From Hyphomicrobiales bacterium (GTDB lineage Bacteria > Pseudomonadota > Alphaproteobacteria > Rhizobiales > JAJFHC01), in NCBI GenBank assembly GCA_965275905.1, contig CBDHYJ010000078.1:83773-147772 (forward strand): a stretch of DNA of 64,000 nucleotides. Reading direction: 5' to 3'. The notes beneath the pieces are model-generated. The model saw only the letters and a program-made list of their open reading frames with translations, searched no databases and was not told the origin of the DNA. This document shows, in pieces, positions 8,320-33,139 of this stretch (position 1 is its first letter; every line of letters begins with the position of its first letter). Made by a program: the position numbers and the translations under genes.

Positions 8320-11300
8320 ATGTCGGGTCAATTGATCGGTGAACTGATTCTCTGGCTGATCGTGGCGGTTATCGTCATCGCGATCATCTACTGGGTCATG
8401 AACTGGCTTTATCGCCGGTCCACCAAGGAGGTCTCGTTCGTACGGACCGGTTTCCTTGGCGAAAAGGTGGTGATCAATGGCGGCGCATTCGTGTGGCCGA
8501 TCGTCCACGATATCACGCCGGTGAACATGAACGTGCTGCCGATCGCGGTGACCCGCGACAGGGATGACGCACTGATCACACGTGACCGGATGCGTGTCGA
8601 CGTCGACGCGGAATTCTATGTGCGTGTCGCACCCACAAAGGACTCCGTGTCGGTCGCTGCGGCAACACTTGGCCGCCGGACCATGGAGCAGGAGCGGCTG
8701 CACGCGCTTCTGGTCGGCAAGTTCATCTCGGCACTCAGATCGGTTGCCGCGGAGATGGATCTGCAGGAGATGCACGAGCAGCGCGGCGATTATGTCATGC
8801 GGGTGCGGGCTGCCGCGCAGGAAGGGCTGGCCCAGAACGGTCTTGAGCTCGAATCCGTCGCCATCACCGATATCGACCAGACGGACCTTGAGTACTTCAA
8901 TCCTTCCAACCAGTTCGATGCCGTCGGTCTGACGCAACTGATCGAGGACATCGAGGCCAAGCGCAAGCTGCGCAACGACATCGAGCAGGACTCGATGATC
9001 AGGATCAGGGCACGAAACCTGGAAGCCGAGAAACAGTCTCTCGACATCGAGCGTGAAAGCGAGTCCGCTCGTCTTGAGCAGGAACGCGAAATCGAGTCGA
9101 ACCGCGCGGCCCAGCGGGCCGAGATCGCACGCCAGCGTGCCGAACGGGAGACGGAAGCCGAACAGGCGCAGATCACCGCACGTGAGGAAATCGAGAAGTC
9201 GCGGATTGCCAACGAGCACGCCATCAGTCAGGCGCGCATCGCGTCTGAACGGGAGATCCGTCAGAAGGAAATCGAACGCCAGCAGATCATCGATGCCGCC
9301 GAAATCGCGTCGCGTGAGCAGGTCGAGATGGCGCGGATTACGCAGGAGCGCTCGGTCACCGAGGCAAGGATCGCAAACGAGCAGGAGACGCAATCCAAGG
9401 ATATCGCCCGCCGCCGCGCCGTTGAGGAAGCGCAGATCGCGGCCAATGAGGCGACCGAGCGGGCACGCATTGCCCAGGAGAAGGCCGTTACCGAGGCCCG
9501 CATCACCAAGGACGAGGAAACCCAGCGCCGCGAAATCGAGGCGCGTGAGGAAACCGAGAAGGCGCGTATTGCGCAGGAGCGGGTGCTGACCGATGCCCGT
9601 ATCCACAACGAGGAAGAGACGCGGCGGCGCGAAATCGCCCGTAACCTCGCTGTCGAGGAAGCCGAGATCGCATCACGCGAAGCGACCGAGAAACTGCGCA
9701 TTGCCCAGGAGACCGTGGTCAACGAGGAACGCATAGCCTCGGACCGCAAGATCCGGGATATGGAGATCGAGCGCACGCGCGTGCTGGAAGAAGCTGAAAT
9801 CGCGGCTCAGCAGGCGACCGAAGCGGCCCGTATCGCGCGGGAGAAGAAGCTCGCCGCTGATCGTATTGCGTCCGAACAGAACACCAGGGAGCTCGAAATC
9901 GAGCGGCGCAAGATCGTGGAGGAAGCCACGATCACGGCCCAGGAAGCGATCGAGGCGACACGGATCGCCCAGGAAGAGCGGGTGCGCGGGCTGGAGATCG
10001 CCCGCAACCGTGCGGTCGACGAGTCCGAGATTGCAGCCCGTGAGGCCGTCGAGGCTGCACGCATCGCGCAGGAGAAGTCGCTCGCCGTCGAGCGCATCGA
10101 GAGCGAAGGCGCGACGAAGGAACGTCAGGTTGAACGCGACAAGGCGGTTCGGGAGGCGGAAATCGCCGCCCACGAGGCCACCGAAGCCGCACGCATCGCG
10201 CAGGAAAAGCGGATCGCGGCGGAACGCATTGCCTCGGAAGAGGAAACGCGCAAGCGCGAGATCGTCCGCAACCGCGAGGTCGATGCCGCCGATATCGCCA
10301 CGCAGGAGTTCATCGAGACGGCGCGGATCGAGCAGCGGGTGAAGGTCGACGCCGAGCGGATCGCCGCCGACGAGGCGACGACGCTTCGCGAATTCGTGGC
10401 GCGCGAGAGCACGGAAGCGGCCCGGATCGCACAGGAAAGAAACACCGAAGCCGAGCGCATTCTGGCCGACCAGGAAACCCGTTCGCGCGAGATCGAGCGC
10501 AACGAGGCGGTCGAGATGGCGGAGATCGGGTCGCGGCGCAGCGTCGACCAGACCCGGATCGAGCGCGAGAAGGAGACGAGTGTCGACCGGATCGGGCGGG
10601 ACGAGGAGGTGCGCAAGCTCGAGATCGCACGCAACGAAGCGCTCGATGCCGCGCAGATTGCCGCCGACAAGGCGATCGAGGCCGCCCGCATTTCGCGTCA
10701 GAAGACGATCGACGCGGAACGCATTCTGGCCGAACAGGAGACCAGAGGCCGGGAGATTGCCCGCGACCAGGTTGTCGAAAGCTCCGAAATCGCCAAGCGC
10801 GATGCCGTCGAGAAGGAACGGATCGCCATGGAGCTGCGGCTGGAGCAGGAACGTATCGATTCGTCCGAGACCCGCGAGATTGCCGATATCGGCCGCAAGA
10901 AGAAGGTCGAGGAGGCGGAAGAAGATCGCGTCATCGCGCTTGCAGGCAAACGCATCGAGCGCGCGGAATCCGATGCCCAGGTCAAGAAGGCCGATATCGA
11001 GGCCCAGCGCGATGTCGATACAGCCGACATTTCGCGCGAGCAGGTGCTCGATGCCGTGAAACTCGAACGCAAGCGTGCGCTCGAGCAACTCGAGGTGGCG
11101 AGGCTCCAGGCCCTGCGTGAGGCAGAGATCGCGTCGCGCGAGGAAATCGAGCGCGCCCAGATCGCATCCGAGCGCGGTCTGGACGAGGCCCGGATCACCC
11201 GCGAGCGCGACCGCCGCAAGCTCGAAGTCGAGCGCGAGCGTGAGGTCGAGTCGGCCGAGATGGAAAAGGCCATCGTGCTTTACCAGAAGTCGCTTGAGGA

Positions 11301-12000
11301 ATCGGCCGCGCAGGCTGAAGCCGATGCGGCTCGTGCCAAGGCCGCGGAGGCCGAGGAGCAGGTCAAGACCGTCCGCGAGAGCGAGGAGGCCAAGCGCCGC
11401 CGGTCCGTCGACGTGATCATGGCCGAGAAGGAAGCCGAGGCGAAGAAGATCGCCGCGGAAGCCGAGAAAGTGCGCGCCGCGGTCGAAGCCGAGGCCCAGC
11501 GTCTGTTGAACGAGGCCGAGAACGTCCTCACCGACGAGGCGCGCTACGCGCTGTTCCGCCGCAAGCTGCTGGAACACGTGGAAGGCATTGTCTCGGCGTC
11601 GGTCAAGCCGATGGAGAAGATCCAGGATATCCGGATCATGCAGCTCGACGGCATGAGCGGCGGCGGGGGCGGCGACCGCAAGAATGCGACCGACGAGGTC
11701 ATCGACTCCGCCCTGCGCTACCGCGTCCAGGCGCCGCTGGTCGACAGCCTGATGTCCGATCTCGGCATCGACGGCAGCAACATCTCCAAACTGGGCGGTC
11801 TGGTGCGGGAAGCACGCGACATGCAGTCCATCGCCGAGAAGGCCGAGAAACAGGCGTCTGCTGGTGACGGCGGCTCCGATAGCTCGGGCGACGGCGGTGG
11901 TTCGGGCGGCGGAGATGACGGCGGCGGATCCGGCGGCTCAGGCGGCTCGGGCAGTTCGCGGCGTTCGGGCGGCCGGCGCTCAACCAGATCCAAGAAGTAG
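8320..12000 (+). CDS. Giant SPFH/band-7 flotillin (YqiK-like), 1226 aa, with an expanded hendecad helical region and a Gly/Ser/Arg tail
   Basis: N-terminal TM helix; SPFH core (FVRTGFLGEKVV, LITRDRMRVDVDAEFYVRV, NGLELESVAITDIDQT, NQFDAVGLT); flotillin C-terminus (VKPMEKIQDIRIMQ, SALRYRVQAPLVD). Confidence 0.9.
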   Translation: MSGQLIGELILWLIVAVIVIAIIYWVMNWLYRRSTKEVSFVRTGFLGEKVVINGGAFVWPIVHDITPVNMNVLPIAVTRDRDDALITRDRMRVDVDAEFYVRVAPTKDSVSVAAATLGRRTMEQERLHALLVGKFISALRSVAAEMDLQEMHEQRGDYVMRVRAAAQEGLAQNGLELESVAITDIDQTDLEYFNPSNQFDAVGLTQLIEDIEAKRKLRNDIEQDSMIRIRARNLEAEKQSLDIERESESARLEQEREIESNRAAQRAEIARQRAERETEAEQAQITAREEIEKSRIANEHAISQARIASEREIRQKEIERQQIIDAAEIASREQVEMARITQERSVTEARIANEQETQSKDIARRRAVEEAQIAANEATERARIAQEKAVTEARITKDEETQRREIEAREETEKARIAQERVLTDARIHNEEETRRREIARNLAVEEAEIASREATEKLRIAQETVVNEERIASDRKIRDMEIERTRVLEEAEIAAQQATEAARIAREKKLAADRIASEQNTRELEIERRKIVEEATITAQEAIEATRIAQEERVRGLEIARNRAVDESEIAAREAVEAARIAQEKSLAVERIESEGATKERQVERDKAVREAEIAAHEATEAARIAQEKRIAAERIASEEETRKREIVRNREVDAADIATQEFIETARIEQRVKVDAERIAADEATTLREFVARESTEAARIAQERNTEAERILADQETRSREIERNEAVEMAEIGSRRSVDQTRIEREKETSVDRIGRDEEVRKLEIARNEALDAAQIAADKAIEAARISRQKTIDAERILAEQETRGREIARDQVVESSEIAKRDAVEKERIAMELRLEQERIDSSETREIADIGRKKKVEEAEEDRVIALAGKRIERAESDAQVKKADIEAQRDVDTADISREQVLDAVKLERKRALEQLEVARLQALREAEIASREEIERAQIASERGLDEARITRERDRRKLEVEREREVESAEMEKAIVLYQKSLEESAAQAEADAARAKAAEAEEQVKTVRESEEAKRRRSVDVIMAEKEAEAKKIAAEAEKVRAAVEAEAQRLLNEAENVLTDEARYALFRRKLLEHVEGIVSASVKPMEKIQDIRIMQLDGMSGGGGGDRKNATDEVIDSALRYRVQAPLVDSLMSDLGIDGSNISKLGGLVREARDMQSIAEKAEKQASAGDGGSDSSGDGGGSGGGDDGGGSGGSGGSGSSRRSGGRRSTRSKK
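9169..10917 (+). repeat. 53 tandem 11-aa (33-bp) coding repeats with a 44-aa super-period inside the flotillin gene
   Basis: Manual alignment from QITAREEIEKS to DIGRKKKVEEA; Ile at position 2 in 51 of 53 units (one Val, one Phe). Confidence 0.92.
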
Positions 12001-12012
12001 GCGGGCGGACGC

Positions 12013-12450
12013 ATGGCGAGAGTCTTCACATCAAGCGTGATCGGCGCGCCCGCCGACAAGGTCTGGGCCCGGATCCGTGACTTCAACGGTCTGCCGAGCT
12101 GGCATCCGGCGATCCGGGAGAGCCAGATCGAGGGCGGCGAACCGTCGGACAAGGTCGGCTGTATCAGGGACTTCTACCTGCAGAACGGCGACCGGATCCG
12201 CGAGCAACTGCTGGGCCTGTCGGACTACGACATGTTCTGCACCTATTCGATCCTGGAAAGCCCGATGCCGCTCGAGAACTACGTGGCCACGCTGCGCTTG
12301 ACACCGATCACGGACGGCAACAGGACGTTCGCCGAGTGGACGGCGGAGTTCGACTGCGCGCCGGAAGAGGAATCCGGTCTCGTTTCCGGCATTGGTGAAA
12401 ATGTGTTCCAGGGCGGCTTCGACTCGCTCAAGCGGCACTTCGGAAACTGA
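12013..12450 (+). CDS. SRPBCC/START-fold (polyketide cyclase 2) protein, copy 1
   Basis: IGAPADKVWARIRDFNGLPSWHP, GCIRDF, YSILESPMPLENYVAT. Confidence 0.9.
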   Translation: MARVFTSSVIGAPADKVWARIRDFNGLPSWHPAIRESQIEGGEPSDKVGCIRDFYLQNGDRIREQLLGLSDYDMFCTYSILESPMPLENYVATLRLTPITDGNRTFAEWTAEFDCAPEEESGLVSGIGENVFQGGFDSLKRHFGN

Positions 12451-12459
12451 CGGTCGGGC

Positions 12460-12903
12460 ATGGTGAAAGTGGTCAAGAGCACGATCCTCGACGCACCCAT
12501 CGATGAGGTGTGGGACGTGCTGCGTGACTTCAACGGTCACGACCACTGGCACCCGGCCGTTGCCGACAGCACTGTCGAGCGCGGCTCACCGTCGGACCGG
12601 GTGGGCTGCGTCAGGCGCTTTCACCTGCAGGACGGTTCGGAGCTGCGCGAGCAGCTGCTGACGTTGTCCGACATGGAAACGGCGTTCAGCTACTGCCTGC
12701 TCGATACACCGGTGCCGCTGTTCAACTACGTCGCTCATGTGCGGCTGATTCCGGTAACCGACGGCAACCGCACGTTCTGGCAGTGGGAGTCGCGCTTCGA
12801 CACGCCGAAGGGTCGCGAGAGCGAGCTTGAGCAACTGGTCGGAACGGACATCTACGAGGCGGGCTTCGAGGCCGTTCGCCAGCATATGGGCCTGGCGGCC
12901 TGA
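12460..12903 (+). CDS. SRPBCC/START-fold protein, copy 2 (paralogue of the preceding gene)
   Basis: LDAPIDEVWDVLRDFNGHDHWHP, GCVRRF, aligns colinearly with copy 1. Confidence 0.9.
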   Translation: MVKVVKSTILDAPIDEVWDVLRDFNGHDHWHPAVADSTVERGSPSDRVGCVRRFHLQDGSELREQLLTLSDMETAFSYCLLDTPVPLFNYVAHVRLIPVTDGNRTFWQWESRFDTPKGRESELEQLVGTDIYEAGFEAVRQHMGLAA

Positions 12904-12922
12904 GGAAAGGGGACAGACCCGC

Positions 12923-13744
12923 ATGGCATATACAGTCAGGACATTCGACCAACTCGGCGAAGCCGCCAGCGCGATGGCGTCGGACCGCGCCGCGCGCTTC
13001 CTCGGCGGCGGCACGCTGGTGATGCGCGCGGTGAACGAGGGCGATCAGTCATTCCGGACGATCGTGCGTGCGACCGACCAGTCCCTGAAACAGATCCGGC
13101 CGGCGTCGAACCGGATCGAGATCGGGGCTGCCGTCACCATGTCGGACATCCTGGCGAGCCAGGACGCGGCATTCCTGCATCCCGCGGCGCGAGCGGTCGG
13201 CGGCCCGGCGATCCGCAATATGGCGACGATCGGCGGCAATCTGTTCGCGCGGTCTCCCTACGGCGACTTTACGACGGCCTTGCTGGCGCTGGATACCACC
13301 GTCTCGACGGTTGGCGGCATGGGCAGCCGGGATATGGCCCTTGCGGAGTTTCTGGCCCAGCGCGACAGCGGGCAGGCGGGACTCGTTGCGGGCGTTTCCG
13401 TGACGCGTCCCTCGACACCGGACGCGTTACGCTTCGTCAAGGTGAGCCGCGTGAAGCCGAAGGGCATCTCGGTTCTGAGCATTTCGGCACTCCTGCCGGT
13501 CTCCGGCGGACGGGTCAGCGGCGCTGCGGTCGCCTACGGGGCGATGGCGCCGACACCGATCCGGGTACCAGCAGTCGAGCGCGCACTCGAAGGCCAGACA
13601 TTGGACGAGGCCGGTATCGCAGGCGCCCTTGCCGTGGCAACGGAAGGCTGTGCCCCGGCGACGGATGCAATTGCGTCCGAATGGTACCGCCGGGAGGTGG
13701 CGCCGGTGCATCTGAAACGGCTTCTGCTCGGACAGGCGAGGTAG
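12923..13744 (+). CDS. Xanthine-oxidase-family molybdoenzyme, FAD-binding (CoxM-like) subunit
   Basis: FLGGGT, IGAAVT, AIRNMATIGGNL, DAIASEWYRR; RBS-like purine tract upstream of ATG 12923. Confidence 0.92.
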   Translation: MAYTVRTFDQLGEAASAMASDRAARFLGGGTLVMRAVNEGDQSFRTIVRATDQSLKQIRPASNRIEIGAAVTMSDILASQDAAFLHPAARAVGGPAIRNMATIGGNLFARSPYGDFTTALLALDTTVSTVGGMGSRDMALAEFLAQRDSGQAGLVAGVSVTRPSTPDALRFVKVSRVKPKGISVLSISALLPVSGGRVSGAAVAYGAMAPTPIRVPAVERALEGQTLDEAGIAGALAVATEGCAPATDAIASEWYRREVAPVHLKRLLLGQAR

Positions 13745-13746
13745 CA

Positions 13747-14229
13747 ATGGCGCGTAAACCGATACAGTTCAGGCTCAACGGCTCGGAGAAGGCCGTGTTT
13801 GTCGAGGACGGCCAGAACCTGCTCGACACCGTGCGCCGCGAGGTCGGCGACTTCGCGCCGAAATACGGTTGCGGGCAGGGCACGTGCGGCTGCTGTACCG
13901 TACTGATCGACGGCGAACCTCATCTTTCCTGCCTGACCCTTGCCGAGACCTGCGAAGGCCGTGCCATCGAGACGACCAGCGCGCTCGCCGACGGCCCCGA
14001 CCTCCATCCCCTGCAGGCCGCATTTACGGAGCATTTCTCAGCACAATGCGGCTTCTGCACGCCCGGCATGCTGATGGCCGCCAAGGCTCTGCTCGACCGC
14101 AATCCGCAGCCGACACGCGAAGACGTGGTCGAGGCGATCTCCGGCAACATCTGCCGGTGCACCGGCTACGAGTCGATCATCAATGCCATTCTCGATGCCG
14201 CATCGCGGCGTAACGCGCGCAGCGCCTGA
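13747..14229 (+). CDS. Xanthine-oxidase-family molybdoenzyme, 2x[2Fe-2S] (CoxS-like) subunit
   Basis: GCGQGTCGCCTV, QCGFCTPGM, GNICRCTGY. Confidence 0.95.
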   Translation: MARKPIQFRLNGSEKAVFVEDGQNLLDTVRREVGDFAPKYGCGQGTCGCCTVLIDGEPHLSCLTLAETCEGRAIETTSALADGPDLHPLQAAFTEHFSAQCGFCTPGMLMAAKALLDRNPQPTREDVVEAISGNICRCTGYESIINAILDAASRRNARSA

Positions 14230-14241
14230 GGACCGTCCGTC

Positions 14242-16011
14242 ATGCTCGAATTCAGAAAAGATCTTTTTGCCGATGAACGCGACGACGATCTGAACGAGAT
14301 CGGCCAGCCGACACAGCGCCAGGACATACTGGGTCATGTCACCGCCCGGTCCCGGTTCTTCGACGACCACGCGTTTGACGGCCTGCTGCACCTTAAGTGT
14401 GTGCGCAGCCCACACCACCATGCGCGCATCCGCTCGGTCGACTGTTCGCAGGCGGAAACGGCGCCCGGCGTTGTGCGGATCATCCGTCCCGGCGACGTCC
14501 CGGTCAATCTCAACACGCTCCTGAGCCTGATCGGCTTCGGCAGGGATGACGAGCCGGTGCTCGCGGTCGACAAGGTCCGCTACAAGGGCGAGCCGCTGGT
14601 CGCCATCATTGCGGAAAGCGAAATTGCGGCACGGGATGCCGTCCAGCTCGTCAGGGTCGACTACGAGGTCCTGCCGCACGTGCTCGAGGTCGAGGAGGCC
14701 CTGAAGCCCGGTGCGCCGACGGTCAACGATACCTATCCGGAGAACTACTTCGTCTACCACGAGCATTACGACCGCCAGAAGCTTCGCTACGGCGATGTCG
14801 AGCGGGGCTTTGCCTCGGCCGATCATGTGCTCGAGGAGCGCTACCAGATGTCGCCGATCGAGCAGGCGCCGACCGAAACGAACGGATGCATCGCCGCGCC
14901 GGAGAACAATGACCGGTTCGTCGTGCACACGTCCACGCAGGCGCTGTTCTTCTCGCTCGGGACGACCGCAAAGCTGCTCGATATGCCGTCGAACCAGTTG
15001 CATTTCATCGGTGGCACGGTCGGCGGCGGCTTTGGCGGCAAGGTCGACTCCCTGTGTGAGCCGCTTGCCGTGCTCGGGGCCAAATTCACCGGCCGGCCGG
15101 TGCGCTACGTGTTCGACCGGGAAGAGGAAATGCAGGTCGGCGCGCCGCGCGGCGCGGAGGTCTGGTACATCAAGGACGGGGTCATGAATGACGGGCGCAT
15201 CGTCGCCCGGCAGATCCGTGGATACTTCGATGCCGGCGCCTATACCCGGCTGTCGAGCTACGCGATCATCAAGTGCACCGCGCATCTGCCGGGGCCCTAC
15301 ACGATCCCCAACGTCAAGTCGGACGCGTTCTGCGTCTACACCAACCGGACGCCGGCAACCGCCATGCGCGGCTTCGGCATTACGGGCGTCGATTTCGCGC
15401 TCGAATGCCACATGGACAAGATGGCGCATCTGGTCGGCATGGATCCGATCGAGATGCGTATCCTCAATGCCTATCGCGACGGCGATATGAAGGCGCACCG
15501 GCGCGAGGCCAAGAACTGCGCGCTGATCGAGTGCTGCCAGGTGGCCGCGGAAAAGGCTGGCTGGACCATCCGCGACGAGTTCAGGCAGATGGCCTCGATG
15601 AGGGACGGCGGCGGGGACCGGGCGCTGATCCCGCAGACGGCGATGGACAACGAGGGACGTATCGGCGGTGGCGCCGCACCGTCGCCGGTCTCGACGCCGC
15701 AGCCCGCGCCACTGATCACGCCGGGCGTGCAGCCGCAGACCGTGACGGCACCTCCGCCGCAACCTCAACCGGCACCTCCGCCGGCGCAGGCGCAGCCACC
15801 GCAACCTGCCGCCCCGCCGCCGGCCCAACAGACCACGCAGCCGCCACAACCCGCGGCTCCGCCGCCGCAGCCGCATCCCCCGGTGCAGACACGGCCGGAA
15901 CCGCATAGCGAGCCGGCCGGTTCGGCACGGCCGTCGCCGTCGCCACGGCCCGGGTCGCAGCGCCATGGCGCGCACCGGTCATCTTCCATTTCAGGCATGA
16001 GGAGGCGCTGA
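14242..16011 (+). CDS. Molybdopterin-binding subunit, N-terminal half, with a ~110-aa Pro/Gln-rich C-terminal tail
   Basis: RSPHHHARI, KVRYKGEP, GGGFGGK, DAGAY, PYTIPN, AMRGFG, DPIEMR. Confidence 0.92.
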   Translation: MLEFRKDLFADERDDDLNEIGQPTQRQDILGHVTARSRFFDDHAFDGLLHLKCVRSPHHHARIRSVDCSQAETAPGVVRIIRPGDVPVNLNTLLSLIGFGRDDEPVLAVDKVRYKGEPLVAIIAESEIAARDAVQLVRVDYEVLPHVLEVEEALKPGAPTVNDTYPENYFVYHEHYDRQKLRYGDVERGFASADHVLEERYQMSPIEQAPTETNGCIAAPENNDRFVVHTSTQALFFSLGTTAKLLDMPSNQLHFIGGTVGGGFGGKVDSLCEPLAVLGAKFTGRPVRYVFDREEEMQVGAPRGAEVWYIKDGVMNDGRIVARQIRGYFDAGAYTRLSSYAIIKCTAHLPGPYTIPNVKSDAFCVYTNRTPATAMRGFGITGVDFALECHMDKMAHLVGMDPIEMRILNAYRDGDMKAHRREAKNCALIECCQVAAEKAGWTIRDEFRQMASMRDGGGDRALIPQTAMDNEGRIGGGAAPSPVSTPQPAPLITPGVQPQTVTAPPPQPQPAPPPAQAQPPQPAAPPPAQQTTQPPQPAAPPPQPHPPVQTRPEPHSEPAGSARPSPSPRPGSQRHGAHRSSSISGMRRR

Positions 16012-16013
16012 CG

Positions 16014-17039
16014 ATGGCTCTGCATCGCGGACGCGGCGTTGCCGCAATCAACTATCCGATCGGCATGAACCTCGGCGGGGACCCGAGCCAGGCGCTCGTG
16101 CACTCCAATCCGGACGGCAAGTTCACGGTTGCCCTGTCGTCGATCGATCTCGGACAGGGCATGAAGTCGGTGACGCGGCAGATCGCGGCTGAAACCCTCG
16201 GAATTCCCGTCACGGACGTTTATGTCGACACTGCCGACAGCGATACCGGCCCGCACTGCATGGGCAGCTTTGCCTCGCGCGGCACCCACCGGGTCGGCAA
16301 CGCGGTCATTGCGGCGGCCAAGGAAGCCCGCGGCGTGCTGCTGGAGGCGGCGGCCGAGGAACTGGAGGTCAATGCGGACGATCTCGAGACCGACGGCAAG
16401 GGCAACATCCATGTCAAGGGCGCCCCGCAGCGCTCGATCACCACGACCGAAGTGGCGATCGCCGCTCAGTTCAAGCAGGGCAAGACCATTTCAGGGCGCG
16501 GCATTTTCCTGATCCCCATGTCGGACGTCGATCCCGAGACCGGCGAGATGACCCCGGTGTCCTGTTATGCCCATGCCTGCCTCGTTGTCGACGTGGAGGT
16601 CGATGACGAGACGGGCGAGGTCGAGGTGCTGGAGATCAACAGCGCCTACGAAGTCGGCCGTGCGCTCAATCCGAAGCTGGTCGAACAGCAGCTTGTCGGC
16701 GGGGCCTGGATGGGCCTGAGCCACGCGCTCTACGAGACCACCGAACCGTATTATCCGGACAGGAGCCACGGGCCGGTCGACTTCAACGAGTATCTGATGC
16801 CGGGTCCGGGCGATGTCGCAACCCACAATATTGCCGTGCTTGAGCGGCCGGCGCCTGACGGGCCGTATGGCGGCAAGGGGCCGGGCGAGATGTGCGCCAA
16901 TCCGGTCCTGCCCGCCGTCACCAATGCGGTGTTCAACGCGGTCGGCGTGCGCATAGACGAACTGCCGATCACGCCGGAAAAGGTGCTGCGCGGCATCAAG
17001 GCCCAGGGCGGAGCGGCCCCGGCGGGACGGACGGGCTAG
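16014..17039 (+). CDS. Molybdopterin-binding subunit, C-terminal half
   Basis: DLGQG, GSFASRGT, VEVDDETGEV, GRALNP, GKGPGE (catalytic Glu position), LPITPE; own AGGAGG RBS. Confidence 0.92.
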   Translation: MALHRGRGVAAINYPIGMNLGGDPSQALVHSNPDGKFTVALSSIDLGQGMKSVTRQIAAETLGIPVTDVYVDTADSDTGPHCMGSFASRGTHRVGNAVIAAAKEARGVLLEAAAEELEVNADDLETDGKGNIHVKGAPQRSITTTEVAIAAQFKQGKTISGRGIFLIPMSDVDPETGEMTPVSCYAHACLVVDVEVDDETGEVEVLEINSAYEVGRALNPKLVEQQLVGGAWMGLSHALYETTEPYYPDRSHGPVDFNEYLMPGPGDVATHNIAVLERPAPDGPYGGKGPGEMCANPVLPAVTNAVFNAVGVRIDELPITPEKVLRGIKAQGGAAPAGRTG

Positions 17040-17051
17040 GAGGGTGTCGGC

Positions 17052-17933
17052 GTGGCGGTAAGGCGTGAAATAGTCGGCATTGACGGGCCGGACACGCTTG
17101 AGAGCGCTCTGCGCGCCGCCCAATACCTGGCGGATGGCGGCCTGTCCACCGCGGCCTATCTGGCGCTTGCTCTTGGCAAGCCGCTGCTGCTTGAAGGCGC
17201 GCCCGGTGTCGGCAAGACCGAGGCCGCCAAGGCGATTTCCTCCGTTCTCGGACGCCAGTTGATCCGGCTGCAGTGTTACGAGGGCATCGATGCCGCCCAT
17301 GCGCTCTACGAATGGAACTATCCGCGCCAGATGCTGGCGATCCGGCAGGCCGGCGAGGAATCGGTCGACATCTACCGCGACGAATTCCTGATCGAGCGGC
17401 CGATGCTTGCCGCGCTTCAGGCGCCGCGCAACACCGTCCTGCTGATCGACGAGATCGACCGCTCCGATCACGAGTTCGAGGCCTTCCTCCTGGAATTCCT
17501 GTCCGACTTCCAGATCTCGATCCCCGAACGCGGGACGGTCCGGGCGCACGAGCATCCGGTGGTGGTCCTTACGTCGAACCGGACCCGCGAACTGCACGAA
17601 GCGCTCAGGCGACGCTGTGTCTATCACTGGATCGCGTATCCGGACGCCGAACGCGAGGCGCAGATCGTCATGATGCGCGCCTCCAGCGTTGCCGAAGCGA
17701 CAGCGCAGGCCGTGGTCGCCGCCGTCGCCCGGATGCGGCAGGAGCCGCTCACGAAGCCGCCGGGCGTGGCCGAGACCGTCGAGTGGGCGGAGGCCGCGAC
17801 TCTGCTCAACAGTCAGGGCGCGCCGTGGCCGGAGGCCTTCCGGCGGGCCATCGGCGTGGTGCTCAAGGACGAGGAAGACCTCGCCTATCTGGCACCGCGT
17901 CTCGACTCTCTCATAGCAGGAGAGGCGGCATGA
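17052..17933 (+). CDS. MoxR-family AAA+ ATPase (CoxD-like)
   Basis: LLEGAPGVGKT, RLQCYEG, LLIDEIDR, LTSNRTRELHEALRRRC. Confidence 0.93.
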   Translation: MAVRREIVGIDGPDTLESALRAAQYLADGGLSTAAYLALALGKPLLLEGAPGVGKTEAAKAISSVLGRQLIRLQCYEGIDAAHALYEWNYPRQMLAIRQAGEESVDIYRDEFLIERPMLAALQAPRNTVLLIDEIDRSDHEFEAFLLEFLSDFQISIPERGTVRAHEHPVVVLTSNRTRELHEALRRRCVYHWIAYPDAEREAQIVMMRASSVAEATAQAVVAAVARMRQEPLTKPPGVAETVEWAEAATLLNSQGAPWPEAFRRAIGVVLKDEEDLAYLAPRLDSLIAGEAA

Positions 17934-19051
17934 CGGACCTGCGGCAGATACCCGATGCGGCGAAGCCGTTTGTCGAGTTTCCCGCGGTTCTGCGCGGGCA
18001 CGGATTTTCGGTCGCGCCCGAGCAGACAATGAATTTCATCACGGCAATCGAACTGCTGGGGCCGAGAGGCATGAGCGATATCGCCAATGCGGCTCATGCG
18101 ACGCTTGCGCCAGCGCCTGAGCGGCGCGACGAGTTCGACGCGCTGTTCCGCATGTTCTTCATGGGCCAGACGGTCGCCGCGCCGATCGTCAGCGACGATG
18201 ACGAAGAAGAGCAGATGCGGGTGCAGGAGGAGGGCGGCACGTTCGAGCCGCTCGACTCCGACGATATCAACGAAACCGGCGAAGCGGCCACCACGACCGA
18301 GGCACTCTCGGTGCGGGAATTCCCGGCCGGGGATCGCGATGAGGTGCTGCGCCGGTTCGCCCGCGCGGTGCCGGACCGTATCCCAGTGCGAAAGGGACAC
18401 AGGCGCGCCGTGGTGCGCCAGGGCCCCGGCTTCGATCTGCGGGCGGTGCTGCGTCAGGCGGTGCGCAATGACGGCGAGATCATCGCCCTGCCGCGCCTCA
18501 AACGGAAGATGCGCCAGCGCGCGATCCTGCTGCTGATCGACGTGTCCGGTTCGATGAAGGCGCAGACGGAAGATCATATGCGCTTCGCTCATGTCCTTGC
18601 GCAAGCCGCCGACAGGATCGAGGTCTTCACGCTCGGTACACGGCTGACGCGGATCACGCCCGCCCTGCGCTACAGGAACGCGGATCATGCGCTGGCCGCC
18701 GCGTCCTCGACCGTCTCCGACTGGGACGGCGGCACACGCATCGGCGATGCCCTGCAGGCGTTTCTCTCGATCCCGCGTTTCGCCGGGTTCGCGCGCGGCG
18801 CCCTGACGCTGATCCTTTCCGACGGGCTGGAGCGTGGCGAACATGACGCCATGCTTGATGCGGTGGCACGGCTCTCGCGCCGGGCCTGGCGCATAAGCTG
18901 GCTGTCGCCGCTCGCCACCGGCCCCGGCTTCGAACCGCAAACGGCCGCGCTCAAGGCGATCAGGCCCCTCATTGACGACCTTGCCGACTGCAGCTCCCTC
19001 GACCGTCTCTGCACGCATGTGCTCGAGCTTTCCCGGGAGCAGATGCCATGA
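17930..19051 (+). CDS. VWA-domain CoxE-like protein
   Basis: MIDAS motif DVSGS, FTLGTRLTRIT, WDGGTRIG, ILSDGLERG, WLSPL; ATGA overlap with the MoxR gene. Confidence 0.92.
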   Translation: MTDLRQIPDAAKPFVEFPAVLRGHGFSVAPEQTMNFITAIELLGPRGMSDIANAAHATLAPAPERRDEFDALFRMFFMGQTVAAPIVSDDDEEEQMRVQEEGGTFEPLDSDDINETGEAATTTEALSVREFPAGDRDEVLRRFARAVPDRIPVRKGHRRAVVRQGPGFDLRAVLRQAVRNDGEIIALPRLKRKMRQRAILLLIDVSGSMKAQTEDHMRFAHVLAQAADRIEVFTLGTRLTRITPALRYRNADHALAAASSTVSDWDGGTRIGDALQAFLSIPRFAGFARGALTLILSDGLERGEHDAMLDAVARLSRRAWRISWLSPLATGPGFEPQTAALKAIRPLIDDLADCSSLDRLCTHVLELSREQMP

Positions 19052-19926
19052 TCGTCGACGCCCATCACCATGTCTGGCGCCAGGAAGACTTGCCGTGGCT
19101 GATGGGGCCGATGCAGCCGCGGATATTTGGGGAATACGAGGCGATCAGGCGGGACTACCTCATGCCCGAGTTCCTCGACGATATTGCGGGAACCGGGGTG
19201 ACCAAGTCGGTTTACGTGCAGGCGAACTGGGCACCCGACCGCTTCGAGGACGAAGTGGAGTGGGTTCAGCACGTCGCCGACGAGACGGGCTGGCCGCACG
19301 GCATCGTGGGCTATGCTGACTTCCTCGCCGACGATGTGCGACCGCAGCTTGACCGTCTGGCCGAGTACCCTCTGATGCGCGGCGTGCGCATGCAGCTTCA
19401 CTGGCACGAGAACGAGATGTACCGGTTCGCCGGCGATCCTGATTTGTGCACGAACCCGAAGCTTCAGGAGAACGTTGCGCATCTCGCGGATTATGACTGG
19501 AGCTTCGATCTTCAGGTGTTCACCGGTCAGATGGATGGTGCTGCCGAACTGGCGGCGGCCTGTCCGAAGGTGAAGTTTATTCTGCAGCACGCCGGTATGC
19601 CGGAGGACCAGGACGACGTGCCGCGCCGGTCCTGGTACGCGGCGATCCGGCGTCTCGCCAAGAAGAAGAACGTCTACTGCAAGCTCTCGGGCTTCGGCAC
19701 GTTCATCCACTGGAACAATCCGGACCGCGTCGGGCTTCTTGTCCAGGAGGGAGTGAGGATCTTCGGGGCCGAACGCTGCCTCTACGGCTCGAACTTCCCG
19801 ATCGAGAAACTCTGGACGACCTATCCGCAACTGTTCGCCGCCTTCGAAGCGGGGGCAGGCGACCTGCCTCCCGACGACCGCCGGGCAATCTTTCACGACA
19901 CCGCGACGCGGGTCTACCGACTCTAG
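19048..19926 (+). CDS. Amidohydrolase_2-family protein (lactonase-like)
   Basis: VDAHHHVW, VYVQA, RGVR, ILQHAGMP, CKLSG, YGSNFP. Confidence 0.9.
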   Translation: MIVDAHHHVWRQEDLPWLMGPMQPRIFGEYEAIRRDYLMPEFLDDIAGTGVTKSVYVQANWAPDRFEDEVEWVQHVADETGWPHGIVGYADFLADDVRPQLDRLAEYPLMRGVRMQLHWHENEMYRFAGDPDLCTNPKLQENVAHLADYDWSFDLQVFTGQMDGAAELAAACPKVKFILQHAGMPEDQDDVPRRSWYAAIRRLAKKKNVYCKLSGFGTFIHWNNPDRVGLLVQEGVRIFGAERCLYGSNFPIEKLWTTYPQLFAAFEAGAGDLPPDDRRAIFHDTATRVYRL

Positions 19927-19977
19927 TCAAGGAGAACCAAGAGGGGCTGAAGTGCCTCCAAAAAAGGAGACAAGAAC

Positions 19978-20826
19978 ATGGCGCTCGAAATCAAGATACT
20001 CGACTACGGGGACATCGAGCTGGAAACGAGCTTTCTCGTGCTCGGCCACGAGTGCGGCCGCATCCGGCGGGTGCCGGTCTATGGCTATCTGATCCTGGGC
20101 GGGAAGTACCCGGTCCTGGTCGATACCGGCTACCGCGACAACGCGATCATGGAATCGCTCGGCATGCGCGGGCTGCAATACCACGAGAACATGATCGAGA
20201 ACCAGTTGGCCAAGCACGGACTCAAGCTGGGCGATATCCGCTACATCCTGCACACGCACCTGCATATCGACCACGCGGGCAAGGACGACCTGTTCCCGAT
20301 GAACACGACGGTCGTGGTGAACCGGCGCGAGCTCGAATGCTCCGTGTCCGGTCTCATGCACCCGCAATACCCGCAGCCGGACATCAAGCACCTGATCGAC
20401 CGTCTGCACACCCAGGACGCGCTGCGCTTCCTCGATCTCGAGATCACCGGCACGGAAGAAATCATTCCGGGCGTGTGGTGCGAAGCGGCCAATGCCCACA
20501 CGGAAGGGTCGATGAACGTGGTGGTCGAGACCGCCGACGGTCTCGCCAATATCTGCGGCGACGTGATCTACAACTTCAACGACCAGATCGTGAACCAGGT
20601 GCGCCAGACCCAGTTCATGGAGCCGCAGGTGACGGGCAACCACGCGGGCTCCAAGCGGTCTGAGAAGGGCGCGATCAAGAAGCTGCTCCACAATTACCAG
20701 TTCCTGCTGCCGATCCACGACAAACCGGCGAAGATCGAGGAACAGCAGATCGTCGGGCGGCTCGAGGCTCAGGTTCCGGGACCGATCGTGGAGTCGCTGC
20801 CGAAGCGCGACTGGTTCCCGGTCTGA
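19978..20826 (+). CDS. Metallo-beta-lactamase-fold lactonase (AHL-lactonase/pyridoxolactonase-like)
   Basis: LVDTG, THLHIDH (HxHxDH), HTEGS, CGD, PIHD. Confidence 0.88.
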   Translation: MALEIKILDYGDIELETSFLVLGHECGRIRRVPVYGYLILGGKYPVLVDTGYRDNAIMESLGMRGLQYHENMIENQLAKHGLKLGDIRYILHTHLHIDHAGKDDLFPMNTTVVVNRRELECSVSGLMHPQYPQPDIKHLIDRLHTQDALRFLDLEITGTEEIIPGVWCEAANAHTEGSMNVVVETADGLANICGDVIYNFNDQIVNQVRQTQFMEPQVTGNHAGSKRSEKGAIKKLLHNYQFLLPIHDKPAKIEEQQIVGRLEAQVPGPIVESLPKRDWFPV

Positions 20827-20851
20827 CGCCTGCCTGGGGAGGACAAGGACG

Positions 20852-22446
20852 ATGACGCACGAAGCCCTGCGCCCGGAATTCAACGACCTGATCGACCAGT
20901 ATGCGCCTGTCGGCCAGCTCGCCACGGGGTTCGAGTTCACCGAAGGGCCGATCTGGCATCCCGTGGATCAGTTCCTCCTGTTCTCGGACATGCCGGGCGA
21001 CGTGCGGCGGCGCTGGGACCGGCACGGCGTGCGCGAAGTCATGCGGCCGTCGAACAAGTGCAACGGCATGACCTACGACGCGCCGACCTCAACCTCATCG
21101 TCTGCGAGCACTCGACGTCGTCGCTGATCCGGGAACGCCGGACGGGCGGCGCGAGGTTCTGGCCTCGCACTTCGAGGGCCGGGAACTGAACAGCCCGAAC
21201 GACGTCTGCGTGCGCTCGGACGGATCGATCTATTTCTCCGATCCATGGTACGGGCGCATGCCTGGCTTCGGCGTGGAGCGGCCCCGGGAGCTGGGCTTCC
21301 AGGGCGTCTACCGCGTCCGGCCCGGCACGGTCGGGCAGGAGCCGGAGCTCGTCGTCGACCGCATGCTGTTCGATCAGCCGAACGGTCTGTGTTTCTCGCC
21401 GGACGAGTCCATCCTCTACATCAACGACACGACCAACGCCCTGATCCGGGCCTTCGATGTCAATCCGGACGGCACGCTCAAGAACGGGCGGCTGTTCGCC
21501 AGCGGCATCAAGTCGGACCTGCTGCCGGGCGTGCCCGACGGCATGAAGTGCGATGCGCTCGGCAATGTCTGGGTCACGGCGCCGGGCGGCGTCTGGGTCT
21601 ACGCGCCGAGCGGCACGCTGATCGGCAAGGTGCGCGTGCCCGAACTGGTCGCCAACCTGCACTGGGGCGGCGAGGACTGGCGCACGCTCTACATGTGCTG
21701 CGACCCATTCCGTCTACACCGTGACGACAAAGGTCGGGCCACGGAACGAACCTTTCATGCGCACGCGCGGCGGGCCTGAAGCCGGGACTGTTTCGGCAGC
21801 GCCGCCCCCGGAGGCGCCCGCTGCTTCTCCCTCAAGCGGGGGCCTCCGGCTAGATCCGGGACGATGCGCGCTGATCATCCAGGACATGCAGAACGACGTG
21901 GTCATGGAAGGCGGCGCCTTTGCGGAGTCCGGATCGCCGGCGCACTGCAAGCAGCAGAACAATATCGAGCATTTGCGGCGGCTGGCCGACGTGTGCCGGT
22001 CCAAGGGCGTCATGGTCATCCATGTCTGGTTCGTGGTCGAACCCGGCGCGCCGGGCGTGACTTTGAATGCGCCGCTGTTCGAGGGGCTGCGGGATGCCAA
22101 TGCACTGGTGCGCGGTACCTGGGGCGTGGCGGCGGTGACAGGCCTGGAGCCGCGGCCCGGCGATCACGTGGTCACAAAGATGCGCATGAGCGCCTTTGAA
22201 GGCAGCACTCTCGAAACCGTGCTCAAGAGCGGCGGGCGGGACACGATCATCAGCACGGGGGCGTGGACCAACATGTCGGTCGAGCACACGGCCCGCACAG
22301 GCGCCGACAAGGGCTACAAGGTTGTCGTGCCGGAAGACTGCTGCTCGACCATGAATGCCGACTGGCACAATGCGTCGATCAATTTCGCCATGCAGAACGT
22401 CGCCACCGTGACGTCCACGAACGAGCTCATCGCCGCGTTCGGATGA
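20852..22446 (+). CDS. SMP-30/gluconolactonase fused to an isochorismatase-like domain; indels near 21080, 21137 and 21699
   Basis: FTEGPIW, FSD, LNSPND, YFSDP, PNGLCFSPDE, PDGMKCD; reframed C-terminus runs through a Pro/Ala linker into ALIIQDMQND...KMRMSAF...GAWTNMSVEHTAR. Confidence 0.8.
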
Positions 22447-22549
22447 CGCGTGAGCCCGCCGGAATGCGCGCTCAATGCCGGTTGGACTCGACTCAGTGCG
22501 TCAAGTACGCTCGAAATTCCATCGACTCCACTCACGAGGGGAGAGCCAC

Positions 22550-23191
22550 ATGATTATCGGTGTGTTGAATCAGAAGGGTGGCGTTGGCAAGACGACGGTC
22601 AGCATCAATCTGGCCGGGTACTTTGCCGATCAGGGGTACAAGACCCTGCTGGTCGATGCGGACCCGCAGGGCAGCGCGCAGAACTGGTCGATCGTGCGCG
22701 AAGCGGAACCGAAGTTTCCGGTCATCGGCATGGCCAAGCCGACCCTGCACAGGGACCTTCCTGCTGTTGCGGGCGACTACGACATCACGGTCATCGACGG
22801 GGCGCCGCGCGTGAACGATCTCGGCCGTGCCGCGATCCTTGCGAGCGATCTCGTGCTGATCCCGGTCCAGCCGTCGCCGTTCGATGTCTGGGCGACCGAC
22901 GACACGGTCCGGCTGATCCGCGAGGCGCAGCAGTACAAGGAAGGCATCGACGCGGTGTTCGCCATCAACCGCAAGATCGTCAACACCGCGATCGGACGTG
23001 ATGTGGCCGATGCTTTTGCGGAGCAGCCCTTCGAAGTGCTGCCCGCCACGCTGTGCCAGCGCGTGATCTATGCGGAAAGCGCGGCCCAGGGGCTGACCGT
23101 GCTCGAAGCAGCGCCCGCCAGTCTTGCAGCGCTTGAAATCGCCTCGCTCGGCCGTTCGCTCGTTCAGGAGCAGGAAAGCCAGGCGGCATGA
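22550..23191 (+). CDS. parA: Short ParA/ParF-type Walker-A ATPase (no N-terminal HTH)
   Basis: NQKGGVGKTT, LVDADPQGS, VIDGAP, LIPVQPSPFD, QRVIYAESAAQG. Confidence 0.92.
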   Translation: MIIGVLNQKGGVGKTTVSINLAGYFADQGYKTLLVDADPQGSAQNWSIVREAEPKFPVIGMAKPTLHRDLPAVAGDYDITVIDGAPRVNDLGRAAILASDLVLIPVQPSPFDVWATDDTVRLIREAQQYKEGIDAVFAINRKIVNTAIGRDVADAFAEQPFEVLPATLCQRVIYAESAAQGLTVLEAAPASLAALEIASLGRSLVQEQESQAA

Positions 23192-23628
23192 ACAAGAAGA
23201 TCTCGTTCAAGCGGCCCGCCAAGCCCGCCAGTCCGGAAGCGGACGACTGGGTCAAGGCCGGCGGGGACGATGACGAGAACGGGGCGCCGCCGAAAAAGCC
23301 GGCGGCCGCGAAGCCTGCAGCGCGCAAGCGCAAGGCGGCGGCCCCTAAGCCGAAGGAGAAAACGGAGCCGGCCGCAAGCCCCGCGCCGGCAGCCCGGGCT
23401 CCAACACCCTCATCGATGACTGCAGCCACCGTTCCGAGCGAGGTCAGGTGGCTCGACCGGACGCTCGACAGTGTCGACCGGCAGCTCGAGACCATTTCAG
23501 CGCGGGTCGTGGCGCGCCTCGGCCAGTCAGGCAAATCCGATGCGGATCTTATGGCCGAGATCGGCCGCAAGGCCGACCGGACGATCAAGCGGCTCGAAGA
23601 CCTGAAAAAGTCGCTGCGCAGGAGCTAG
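23188..23628 (+). CDS. Putative ParA partner/adaptor: basic N-terminal peptide, K/A/P-rich disordered region, C-terminal helical segment
   Basis: ATGA overlap with parA; MNKKISFKRP...ADDWV N-terminus; no recognisable ParB or RHH domain. Confidence 0.75.
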   Translation: MNKKISFKRPAKPASPEADDWVKAGGDDDENGAPPKKPAAAKPAARKRKAAAPKPKEKTEPAASPAPAARAPTPSSMTAATVPSEVRWLDRTLDSVDRQLETISARVVARLGQSGKSDADLMAEIGRKADRTIKRLEDLKKSLRRS

Positions 23629-23778
23629 AGGTCGTCCCTTGCTATCATTTTGGCAGCTGTTCTTTGGCCGGGTTTCTATTGGTGTCGACGGATGCCTTGA
23701 CTAACGTCGTGTCAATTTATGTGAAGAAACATGATTGCGTTTGACCAGAATACAGTACGTAATCTCTCATTCTAATTG

Positions 23779-24525
23779 ATGGCGAGTGATTTGAAGCTGC
23801 AGGATTGGATATCTCTTGGCGCGTTTTTGGTGTCCGGACTCTCTGCTTACGCTGCGATCCAGGCCAAGAACACGGCTCAGGAACTTTCCGAACGCGAGTT
23901 TCGCACCGAGAGAACGCTCGAAATTCTAGCGTCCGTTCATACGGAAATGACCAAAGCGGGAAATGATCCTGAGAGGCTTGCGCGGAGCTGTTTTTTTGTG
24001 GCGACGCTAGGAAATGCAGAATTACACCTTCGTAAGAACGAACCACCTCATTTTGTCCGGAATTACGTTGAGGACGTCTCGCGCGCCGGCTTGTGGCCGC
24101 CGACGTGTGATTCAAAACTCGAATCATTAATCTCCGATAGTGCGCCTGCGGCGACTGACGTCGAAGCCTCCAGCGGAAGTCCAGACACTCCCAGCAAGAT
24201 CGGCCAATGGCATGCTTTGATCGCCTCCTATAACGTTACAGAAAAAGGATGCAACGAAGCCAGGAACGACGTGAAGTACTTCGCGCCGAGATTGTCCGGA
24301 CAAGGTTTCAAAGGAAAGCTTGTCTACGTCGTGCGCACAAAGATATCGAATAATTACGCTGTCACTGTAGATGCCGGAGATGACCGGAGTACTGCATCAG
24401 CGATTTCCGATGTCATTCGGTCAGTTGGTCCCCCTGACGGCACGGGGCGCGATTCATTTGTTCAAGGCAATCGCAGCTGGTTCATAGACCAGAATTGCAT
24501 CGAGTTCGCCCGCATTGCTGACTGA
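23779..24525 (+). CDS. Hypothetical protein with N-terminal hydrophobic segment, lower GC than flanks
   Basis: ~250-codon ORF in visibly AT-richer DNA; WISLGAFLVSGLSAYAAI hydrophobic stretch. Confidence 0.7.
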   Translation: MASDLKLQDWISLGAFLVSGLSAYAAIQAKNTAQELSEREFRTERTLEILASVHTEMTKAGNDPERLARSCFFVATLGNAELHLRKNEPPHFVRNYVEDVSRAGLWPPTCDSKLESLISDSAPAATDVEASSGSPDTPSKIGQWHALIASYNVTEKGCNEARNDVKYFAPRLSGQGFKGKLVYVVRTKISNNYAVTVDAGDDRSTASAISDVIRSVGPPDGTGRDSFVQGNRSWFIDQNCIEFARIAD

Positions 24526-32305: not shown

Positions 32306-32518
32306 TATGCGTCTCCCGTCAGATCAATATCCGGTGCTGCCCACAGGGTAGATGTCGTGTCGGGGCAGGTAAAGTTCAACCGTGCCGCTACTGCGGGGTG
32401 CCGGCCGCCGGTTGGTTATCGCGGGATAAAATGCGATTCGCGGCTTGTGTGCATCGTTCAGGCGGTTGACAATGCACGCCAACGAATGCGGCACCGAGGA
32501 GTAGAGGGGGTCACAACC

Positions 32519-33139
32519 ATGCAAAAGAACGAGGATATCGCATCAAGCGCTGCCGAGGGCGCGCAGGATGTTGAAAACCTGGCGCCGGCGGGCAACGGCG
32601 GCGCAGAGGGCGCCGGCGAAGCCGACCCCCGGGCGACGGCGCGGCAGGCGCTGAGCGCGAAAATGGCGGCGGCGGCTTTCGGCGAAATTGTCGCGCTCTT
32701 CATGCGGTCGCCGGGTCACAAGCACTACAGCCTTTCAGACCTCGAATGGATGGTTCTGCCGGCGGTCATGTCCAATCAGTTTGCTTTCGCCAACGCCAAG
32801 GCCAAGAACAATGCGTCCTTGTCGGTCCCGGTCGGCGTTGCGCTATGGGCCAGGGTCTCGGAGGAGGTCGACGCGGAGATTTCGTCAAATCTCGACCGAC
32901 CCTTGCGGTTGCGGCCGGATCAGTGGTCCAGCGGGGACATCAACTGGCTGGTCGACGTGATTGCGGGACCCGAAGTCGGCCGCGCTCTGGTGGACCAGTT
33001 GTCGCGTACCGCATTTGCGGGCAAGGAATTCAAGATGCGGGTCGCGGACAAGGAAGGCAACCGGACCGTCAGGACGATGCAGGGCGCGGATCCTGACGCC
33101 GCGGCAGAAGAAGAGAAGGCGGAAGCCGAAGAGGCGTAA
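32519..33139 (+). CDS. HlyC/CyaC-like toxin-activating lysine acyltransferase
   Basis: LFMRSPGH, LPAVMSNQF, ALWARVS, DQWSSGDINWLVDVIA. Confidence 0.85.
   Translation: MQKNEDIASSAAEGAQDVENLAPAGNGGAEGAGEADPRATARQALSAKMAAAAFGEIVALFMRSPGHKHYSLSDLEWMVLPAVMSNQFAFANAKAKNNASLSVPVGVALWARVSEEVDAEISSNLDRPLRLRPDQWSSGDINWLVDVIAGPEVGRALVDQLSRTAFAGKEFKMRVADKEGNRTVRTMQGADPDAAAEEEKAEAEEA

Follow-up and report, generated by a model that had tools for sequence, protein, structure and literature searches.

A chromosomal ParF-type ATPase with a ParG-derived partner carrying a predicted helical hairpin in place of the ribbon–helix–helix domain

Described ParA systems and the locus

The TP228 partition pair ParF–ParG consists of a short ParA without an N-terminal HTH and a small partner encoded in an overlapping gene. 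A second pair of this general form is McdA–McdB, in which, according to the consulted part of PMC8359340, McdB has a charged N-terminus, a biased disordered region, low hydrophobicity, and an invariant C-terminal tryptophan or aromatic residue. A 2026 preprint, cited here from an excerpt (10.1101/2025.09.22.677801), describes McdAB as the sole minimal system known to position a bacterial organelle and reports that an N-terminal peptide of an McdB is enough for positioning when fused to other cargo. For PHB granules, the portion of a 2025 review available to us (PMC13052382) gives the spacing factor and the ATP dependence of granule positioning as unknown and allows that a carboxysome-like system might exist. 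The PhaF, PhaM, and PhaH tethers join a basic low-complexity stretch to a helical domain; in the same portion of that review they have no ParA partner, and their DNA-binding part is C-terminal. Chromosomal ParAs without parB or parS are represented, in the extract used of PMC9178275, by PpfA of Rhodobacter and by ParI of Pseudomonas putida, an orphan ParA that destabilizes IncP-7 plasmids.

We analyzed a 64,000-nucleotide stretch of a Hyphomicrobiales assembly (the window; its own assembly, G000, is 86% complete) in which a short parA overlaps the gene of a small partner protein, P0001 (Table 1). The pair resembles ParF–ParG in its short ParA lacking an N-terminal HTH, in the overlapping small partner, and in a partner tail homologous to the tails of the family's RHH (ribbon–helix–helix) partners, and the solved structures closest to this ParA are TP228 ParF chains (5U1G, E 6e-29; 4DZZ, E 7e-29). 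Unlike TP228, the pair is chromosomal and lacks an RHH domain, operator or centromere boxes, and rep/mob genes; the partner instead carries a 61-aa basic linker and a predicted helical hairpin. Of the type Ib features, the short Walker-A ParA and the N-terminal ParA-binding tail are kept, and the C-terminal RHH, the upstream box array, and the plasmid or mobile-element location are missing.

Compared with McdA–McdB as the consulted sources describe it, the locus shares the short ParA, the small partner with a charged N-terminus, an A/P/K-biased disordered region, low hydrophobicity, and a predicted helical oligomerization part. It differs in having no aromatic among the last four partner residues (six homologs; their only Trp residues are in the tail and where helix 1 begins), in its derivation from a ParG-type adaptor, and in having no shell genes at the locus. 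The joined basic stretch and helical domain recall PhaF, PhaM, and PhaH, whereas the hairpin fails phasin profiles. In contrast to ParI and PpfA, the ParA here has a dedicated, translationally coupled, ParG-derived partner, and the window has neither chemotaxis genes nor an island. In the literature searched, which included few subscription journals and no supplements, we found no description of the hairpin family, nor of any ParA whose partner joins the tail to a phasin.

Table 1. Positions of the pair and its surroundings within the window
Feature	Position	Strand	Description
Linked cluster	8320..22446	+	candidate source of cargo
Spacer	22447..22549	+	103 bp, isochorismatase stop to parA; without RHH operator-box array or PhaR box
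Short ParF-type ParA ATPase	22550..23191	+	213 aa, from ATG at 22550 to stop at 23191; Walker A KGGVGKT with signature lysine
Partner gene	23188..23628	+	146 aa; ATGA overlap with the parA stop
Partner tail	23188..23262	+	residues 1–25; ParG-type tail, putatively docking on ParA
Partner linker	23263..23436	+	K/A/P-rich, basic, likely disordered
Partner C-domain	23437..23628	+	predicted helical hairpin; conserved W88, L93, S95-V-D-R-Q99, R106, R135

The ATPase and its three-part partner

The ParA scores 266 bits on NCBIfam NF041546 (ParA_partition; cutoff 180), and it retains 12 of the 14 basic (K/R) columns conserved in 45 RHH-partnered relatives. An in-frame ATG at 22475 was rejected as the start: the proteins of relatives open with MIIG, and 22550 has a purine-rich stretch ahead of it. 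Neither a sigma-70 promoter nor a terminator was called in the spacer upstream. This spacer holds an 11-bp element twice (window 22486–22535) in G000 and in the comparison genome G001. One further copy lies elsewhere in G000, the corresponding spacer of G136 has none, and the repeat finder reported no repeat family at the element when run on the window.

The partner matches no Pfam or NCBIfam family, and in searches to E 10 its best matches reach only E 0.024 or weaker. Its first 25 residues, however, score 32.1 bits against an HMM of the tails of 49 RHH partners. None of 500 whole-protein shuffles and none of 500 tail shuffles reached this value (maxima 8.4 and 7.1), and 13 tail positions are invariant across nine homologs. 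Because the tail is homologous to RHH-partner tails and shuffles never came near 32.1 bits, the partner is, as judged by sequence, a ParG-type adaptor by descent.

We predicted the complex of ParA with partner residues 1–32, which scored 0.42, compared with 0.01 for the best control; the runs agreed in at least 63% of contacts, with partner pLDDT of at least 50. The mark set for such predictions was passed by 116 of 157 solved pairs and by 2 of 215 mismatched pairs. At scores of 0.60 or below, the range into which 0.42 falls, it was passed by just 18 solved pairs and by both mismatches, and the prediction therefore lends weak support to docking of the tail on ParA. Likeness to the solved ParF–ParG complex may contribute to the score.

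Beyond the tail, the linker of the window's partner spans 61 aa, is 64% K/A/P, and has a net charge of +6. Linkers of four hairpin-bearing homologs are 61–62 aa long with net charges of +5 to +11, as opposed to a median of 22 aa and −1 in 46 RHH partners. The model of the C-domain contains two helices and no strand (pLDDT 80.8, from a three-row alignment), and the best 18-mer of the domain has a hydrophobic moment of 0.77. P0001 is matched neither by an HMM made from the RHH domains of the family nor by Pfam ParG, though relatives do match the latter. The hairpin aligns with the family's hydrophobic-tail and RHH domains at an hhalign probability below 1%, and Foldseek found no match to it in the PDB. 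Two ESM Atlas queries returned nothing usable and are no evidence of novelty. The C-domain likely binds cargo and oligomerizes.

These results bear out what the first-pass annotation of this DNA, made from the letters alone, had observed here. It had called the ParA short and ParF-like, which the family score and the nearest structures confirm, and had compared the partner's basic N-terminus with the tails of type Ib adaptors, a likeness that the 32.1 bits against shuffles of at most 8.4 upholds. It had also described a K/A/P-rich stretch and a C-terminal helical segment where an RHH would be expected, in agreement with the linker composition, the two-helix model obtained by the structure prediction it proposed, and the silent RHH HMM; a match to an RHH fold, which it named as grounds for refutation, was not seen. 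The complex prediction that it also suggested gave a score above the controls, at a level that lends weak support. It missed that the tail is homologous to the tails of ParG-like partners of the same ParA family, which places the origin of the partner among ParG-type adaptors rather than with McdB.

The layout of tail, linker, and hairpin is common to nine proteins, down to 26% identity: P0001, four proteins at 83–88%, P0127, P0128, P0148, and P0150. We excluded P0149, P0151, P0152, and P0154 (low-complexity or long), as well as P0153 and P0155. P0128 with ParA P0129 and P0148 with ParA P0159 probably belong to the same loci, judging from equal-sized contigs. A single origin of the four hairpin-linked ParAs is neither rejected nor proven (p-AU 0.62; quick tree, 45 selected rows). 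The pair is rare, occurring in 3 of 301 genomes of the order, in none of 400 further genomes of the class, and in one of five genomes in the family of G136.

Relative to G001, parA has a dN/dS of 0.021 and the partner gene one of 0.128, and hairpin helix 1 shows eight synonymous changes and no nonsynonymous one. Both genes are under purifying selection. The stretch 23170–23289, comprising the parA stop and the first 30 partner codons, is 120 bases without any difference from G001, while synonymous divergence elsewhere in the same gene is 0.35–0.5. A possible explanation would involve an overlapping signal or recent recombination.

Plasmid relatives and exchanged partner domains

ParAs on plasmids are near relatives of this ATPase: 203 plasmid records match it with E of at most 1e-50, the two best are annotated parA with ParG, and identities to plasmid ParAs are 60–75%. 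The partner has no match among 72,556 plasmids; a pair found mainly on plasmids was the other outcome that the first-pass annotation had named as damaging. Its statement that the window holds no rep, parB, integrase, or transfer genes also stands for the 49 ORFs that we scanned with Pfam, chosen by length and codon pattern from among all possible ones. Seven Pfam-verified rep, mob, and coupling-protein queries found no match in the G000 assembly (86% complete). GC content is not atypical. The G001 copy of the pair is located at 4.59 Mb of a 5.58-Mb contig, and separate adjacent parA–parB genes are present in G001 and G136.

We surveyed 80 metagenome loci with the closest ParAs and classed the overlapping partners by pattern. 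This gave 44 RHH, 18 hydrophobic-tailed, 2 phasin-like, and 16 unclassed loci; the unclassed loci mostly end at a contig edge, and L170 is by eye a 45th RHH locus. Among partners of at least 30 residues, 70 of 73 open with the same basic-hydrophobic tail followed by tryptophan. Two RHH partners match Pfam ParG (PF09274), one of them above the cutoff. Rep, relaxase, or coupling-protein matches accompany 20 of the 31 RHH loci that span at least 3 kb, none of 12 hydrophobic-tail loci, and not the one phasin locus.

Upstream of parA, 43 RHH loci contain 150 CGBRAA boxes within 150 bp, compared with 42.9 expected, and 41 have at least one. The pattern was read by eye from these same loci, which makes the enrichment there partly circular and leaves the absence at hairpin loci unaffected: the three hairpin loci have 0, 1, and 0 boxes, one in total against 1.5 expected. 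A generic 6-mer repeat test, which is weak, gave p ≤ 0.05 at 9 of the 43 RHH loci.

One partner, at L164, unites a docking tail (13 bits) with a Phasin_2 domain (31.8 bits, cutoff 24.9; hhalign 96.5%). The locus has no rep/mob match and a chromosomal-looking context, and its cluster holds 18 sequences. This phasin-for-RHH swap is a precedent inside the same ParA family, and the L164 ParA with its tail–phasin partner is a candidate PHB granule positioning system. The arrangement (L164:2419–3629) is also seen at L174, where it is cut, and probably at L161 and L172. Among the 301 genomes of the order we found no tail–phasin fusion, the sole match being a stand-alone phasin.

At 18 loci in chromosomal-looking contexts, a hydrophobic W/F-rich helix replaces the RHH at the partner end (L147, L157, L163, L166, L173, L175–L177, L183, L184, L188, L191, L192, L194–L196, L198, and L200). 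The PhaR core is given as YGCRNYGCR in the consulted part of PMC12542648, and that of PMC10888616 agrees on a GC-N3-GC core. A strict PhaR-type box occurs in 12 of 15 distinct hydrophobic-tail upstream regions, against 0.6 expected; many of these loci are close kin, so the 12 are not independent events, and three divergent ones are box-free. Elsewhere the strict box is found at 1 of 43 RHH loci and at none of the two phasin or three hairpin loci. In quick trees with limited support, the hairpin, phasin, and hydrophobic types fall at separate places among RHH-partnered ParAs.

Three replacements of the RHH within one ParA family would amount to repeated domestication into cargo-positioning modules, some of them likely for PHB granules. 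It is possible, on this comparison, that chromosomal motors for cargo positioning arose from one plasmid ParA/ParG family in at least three domestications, the DNA-binding domain of the partner being exchanged for a helical hairpin that serves a metabolic cluster, for a true phasin, or for a hydrophobic helix under PhaR control. The route from DNA segregation to cargo positioning could then be read in sequence, with the ParA and tail kept, the RHH and operator dropped, and a new C-terminal domain. If so, the swaps would be natural counterparts of the "MapTag" fusions engineered from McdB, and the forms with a phasin or under PhaR control would position PHB granules at the expense of ATP. With the tail–phasin fusion behind a ParA, the question of PHB granule positioning can be tested directly, and a positioned metabolic assembly may come to light through the hairpin form.

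The neighboring cluster and candidate cargo

The cluster ahead of the pair encodes a 1226-aa flotillin, two SRPBCC proteins, Mo-hydroxylase subunits, a MoxR AAA protein, a CoxE VWA protein, an amidohydrolase, a metallo-lactonase, and an SMP-30/isochorismatase. In G000, G001, and G136, the last from a different family than G000, the cluster closes with the SMP-30/isochorismatase gene, and the pair begins 102–103 bp beyond it. It thus lies directly behind the flotillin/Mo-hydroxylase cluster in both of the lineages, two only, whose context is readable.

What we observe at this locus is a ParF-type ATPase, a partner with a homologous docking tail and a hairpin for the RHH, absent operator boxes, a chromosomal place behind the cluster, and purifying selection. 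A cargo adaptor is the best reading of the partner. Our tentative preference is for a chromosomal module of the plasmid ParA–ParG type whose partner no longer has a DNA-binding domain and which would space a cargo other than DNA, probably an assembly that the adjacent catabolic cluster makes. If ParF/ParG and McdA/McdB are a guide, as treated in the consulted parts of PMC9178275 and PMC13052382, ATP-bound ParA would coat the nucleoid, and the partner tail would stimulate ATP hydrolysis and so clear ParA locally. Cargo held by the hairpin would move up the ParA gradient and be spaced over the nucleoid through a diffusion ratchet. The hairpin may bind a cluster product, with the flotillin, a Mo-hydroxylase/MoxR/VWA assembly, and the hydrolases as candidates.

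Synteny, another of the checks proposed in the first-pass annotation, speaks in both directions: the pair follows the cluster in two families, but most copies of the cluster manage without it. Among 80 cluster-anchored loci, 70 have at least 1.5 kb downstream, where this pair is found once (at L044, whose sequence is that of the G136 contig) and a different short ParA eight times. A flotillin ortholog (a match at E 1e-130 or better) is present in 55 of 301 genomes, of which 24 have the second ParA, 2 have this pair, and 29 have neither. In five genomes with close cluster copies (completeness unstated), this ParA is absent at E 1e-20, and one of them has only the second type. The single occurrence among 70 cluster loci and the 29 ortholog genomes with neither ParA count against a cargo made by the cluster.

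The second short ParA is 33–35% identical to that of the window. It occupies the same slot in G002 and G003, which represent the other two genera of the G000 family, and in two further genomes it lies ahead of a homolog of the solute-binding protein of the cluster. That two unrelated short ParAs occur at the same cluster suggests that positioning has a use there. The second ParA is nevertheless a single-copy gene in 61 of the 301 genomes, 37 of which have no flotillin ortholog, and its adjacency to the cluster may therefore be inherited linkage. At its loci (L045:1718–2359, L203, L204, and L211–L240) it is an orphan with no obvious partner gene. A strict PhaR-type box lies upstream at 15 of 36 loci, with 1.4 expected, and at none of the cluster-linked copies.

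The first-pass annotation had named the flotillin as the possible cargo of an McdB-like adaptor. The adaptor role survives as the best reading, and membership in McdB does not, given the missing C-terminal aromatic and the lack of a shell gene at the locus. The flotillin itself becomes one candidate among several, and a very unlikely one, because 29 of the 55 ortholog genomes have neither ParA and close cluster copies occur without this ParA; just two ortholog genomes have the pair. The open frame of the flotillin is 1231–1232 aa in G000 and G001 and 1294 aa in G049, which lacks the pair, and flotillin length was accordingly discarded as a correlate. The window's flotillin (8320–12000) is unusually long and has internal repeats, orthologs having open frames of about 780 to 1290 aa. 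In the literature searched we found no function for its conserved cluster.

Against the preferred reading of a cluster product as cargo, the pair might instead position PHB granules, with the amphipathic hairpin binding either the surface of the granule or one of its proteins, and the basic linker as a nucleoid tether like those of PhaF and PhaM. The sister modules point this way, with Phasin_2 behind the tail at L164 and PhaR-type boxes at 12 of 15 hydrophobic-tail loci, and so do the basic K/A/P-rich linker and the two phasins and two PhaC genes of G000. The hairpin itself, however, scores −0.9 bits on a profile of 31 phasins, a value reached by 193 of 500 shuffles, with an hhalign probability of 0.19%, whereas L164 as positive control scores 27.8 bits. 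The PhaR core box is absent from all three hairpin loci, while the phasin promoter of G000, used as positive control, has two. The neighbor of the pair is a catabolic cluster and not pha genes, and PhaC was not found in G136 (71% complete). We consider PHB granule positioning by this pair unlikely. That the hairpin is a degenerate phasin or PhaF is ruled out by the phasin profile.

It is less likely still that the partner binds DNA through its basic linker or hairpin arginines, anchoring or moving a chromosomal region or repressing its own promoter. The linker charge of +5 to +11, as against −1 in RHH partners, the invariant R98, R106, and R135, and the paired 11-bp element, with its one other copy in G000, would suit such a role. 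The partner nevertheless belongs to no RHH or other DNA-binding family, and the operator boxes of the family are gone. The 11-bp element is missing from the G136 spacer and is not part of any family reported by the repeat finder, and G001 and G136 have a canonical parA–parB.

An interference module resembling ParI would use a DNA-less decoy tail that cross-reacts with near-identical plasmid ParA/ParG and destabilizes them. The 60–75% identity to plasmid ParAs, a tail nearly unchanged from theirs, and the record of ParI acting on IncP-7 plasmids (PMC9178275, as excerpted) are consistent with this. The idea leaves the conserved hairpin and the fixed place behind the cluster in two families unexplained; GC content does not stand out, and mobile genes are absent nearby. 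We consider interference improbable. The rarity of the pair (3 of 301 genomes of the order, none of the further 400 of the class) might suggest the remnant of an integrated plasmid, now in decay and serving no role. This is largely refuted by the selection data (dN/dS 0.021 and 0.128), the three-part layout also persists in nine proteins down to 26% identity, and the reading is barely credible.

As to carboxysome or microcompartment cargo, no shell genes were found in the G000 assembly (86% complete); no encapsulin was found in five genomes. Shell genes lie away from the pair in G001 and G136 and are also present in G002 and G003, which have no pair. The microcompartment loci of G001, G002, G003, and G136 (L205:9758–13654, L206:8600–12506, and L207–L210) have no ParA beside them and look catabolic by ORF inspection, with shell ORFs next to aldehyde dehydrogenase-like, glutamine synthetase-like, or aminotransferase-like ORFs.

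Around the pair, the SMP-30/isochorismatase fusion, 530 aa in G001, is broken in the window (20852–22446) by small indels near 21081, 21134, and 21699. The contigs of relatives lack these indels, and the split is therefore probably an assembly error or strain-specific damage. An HlyC RTX-acyltransferase-family ORF lies at 32357–33139, with no RTX gene adjacent to it in the window. Between the partner and pbpC, a low-GC3 ORF of 249 aa (23776–24525) has no family match and is absent in G001, a strain-level insertion right behind the partner's stop.
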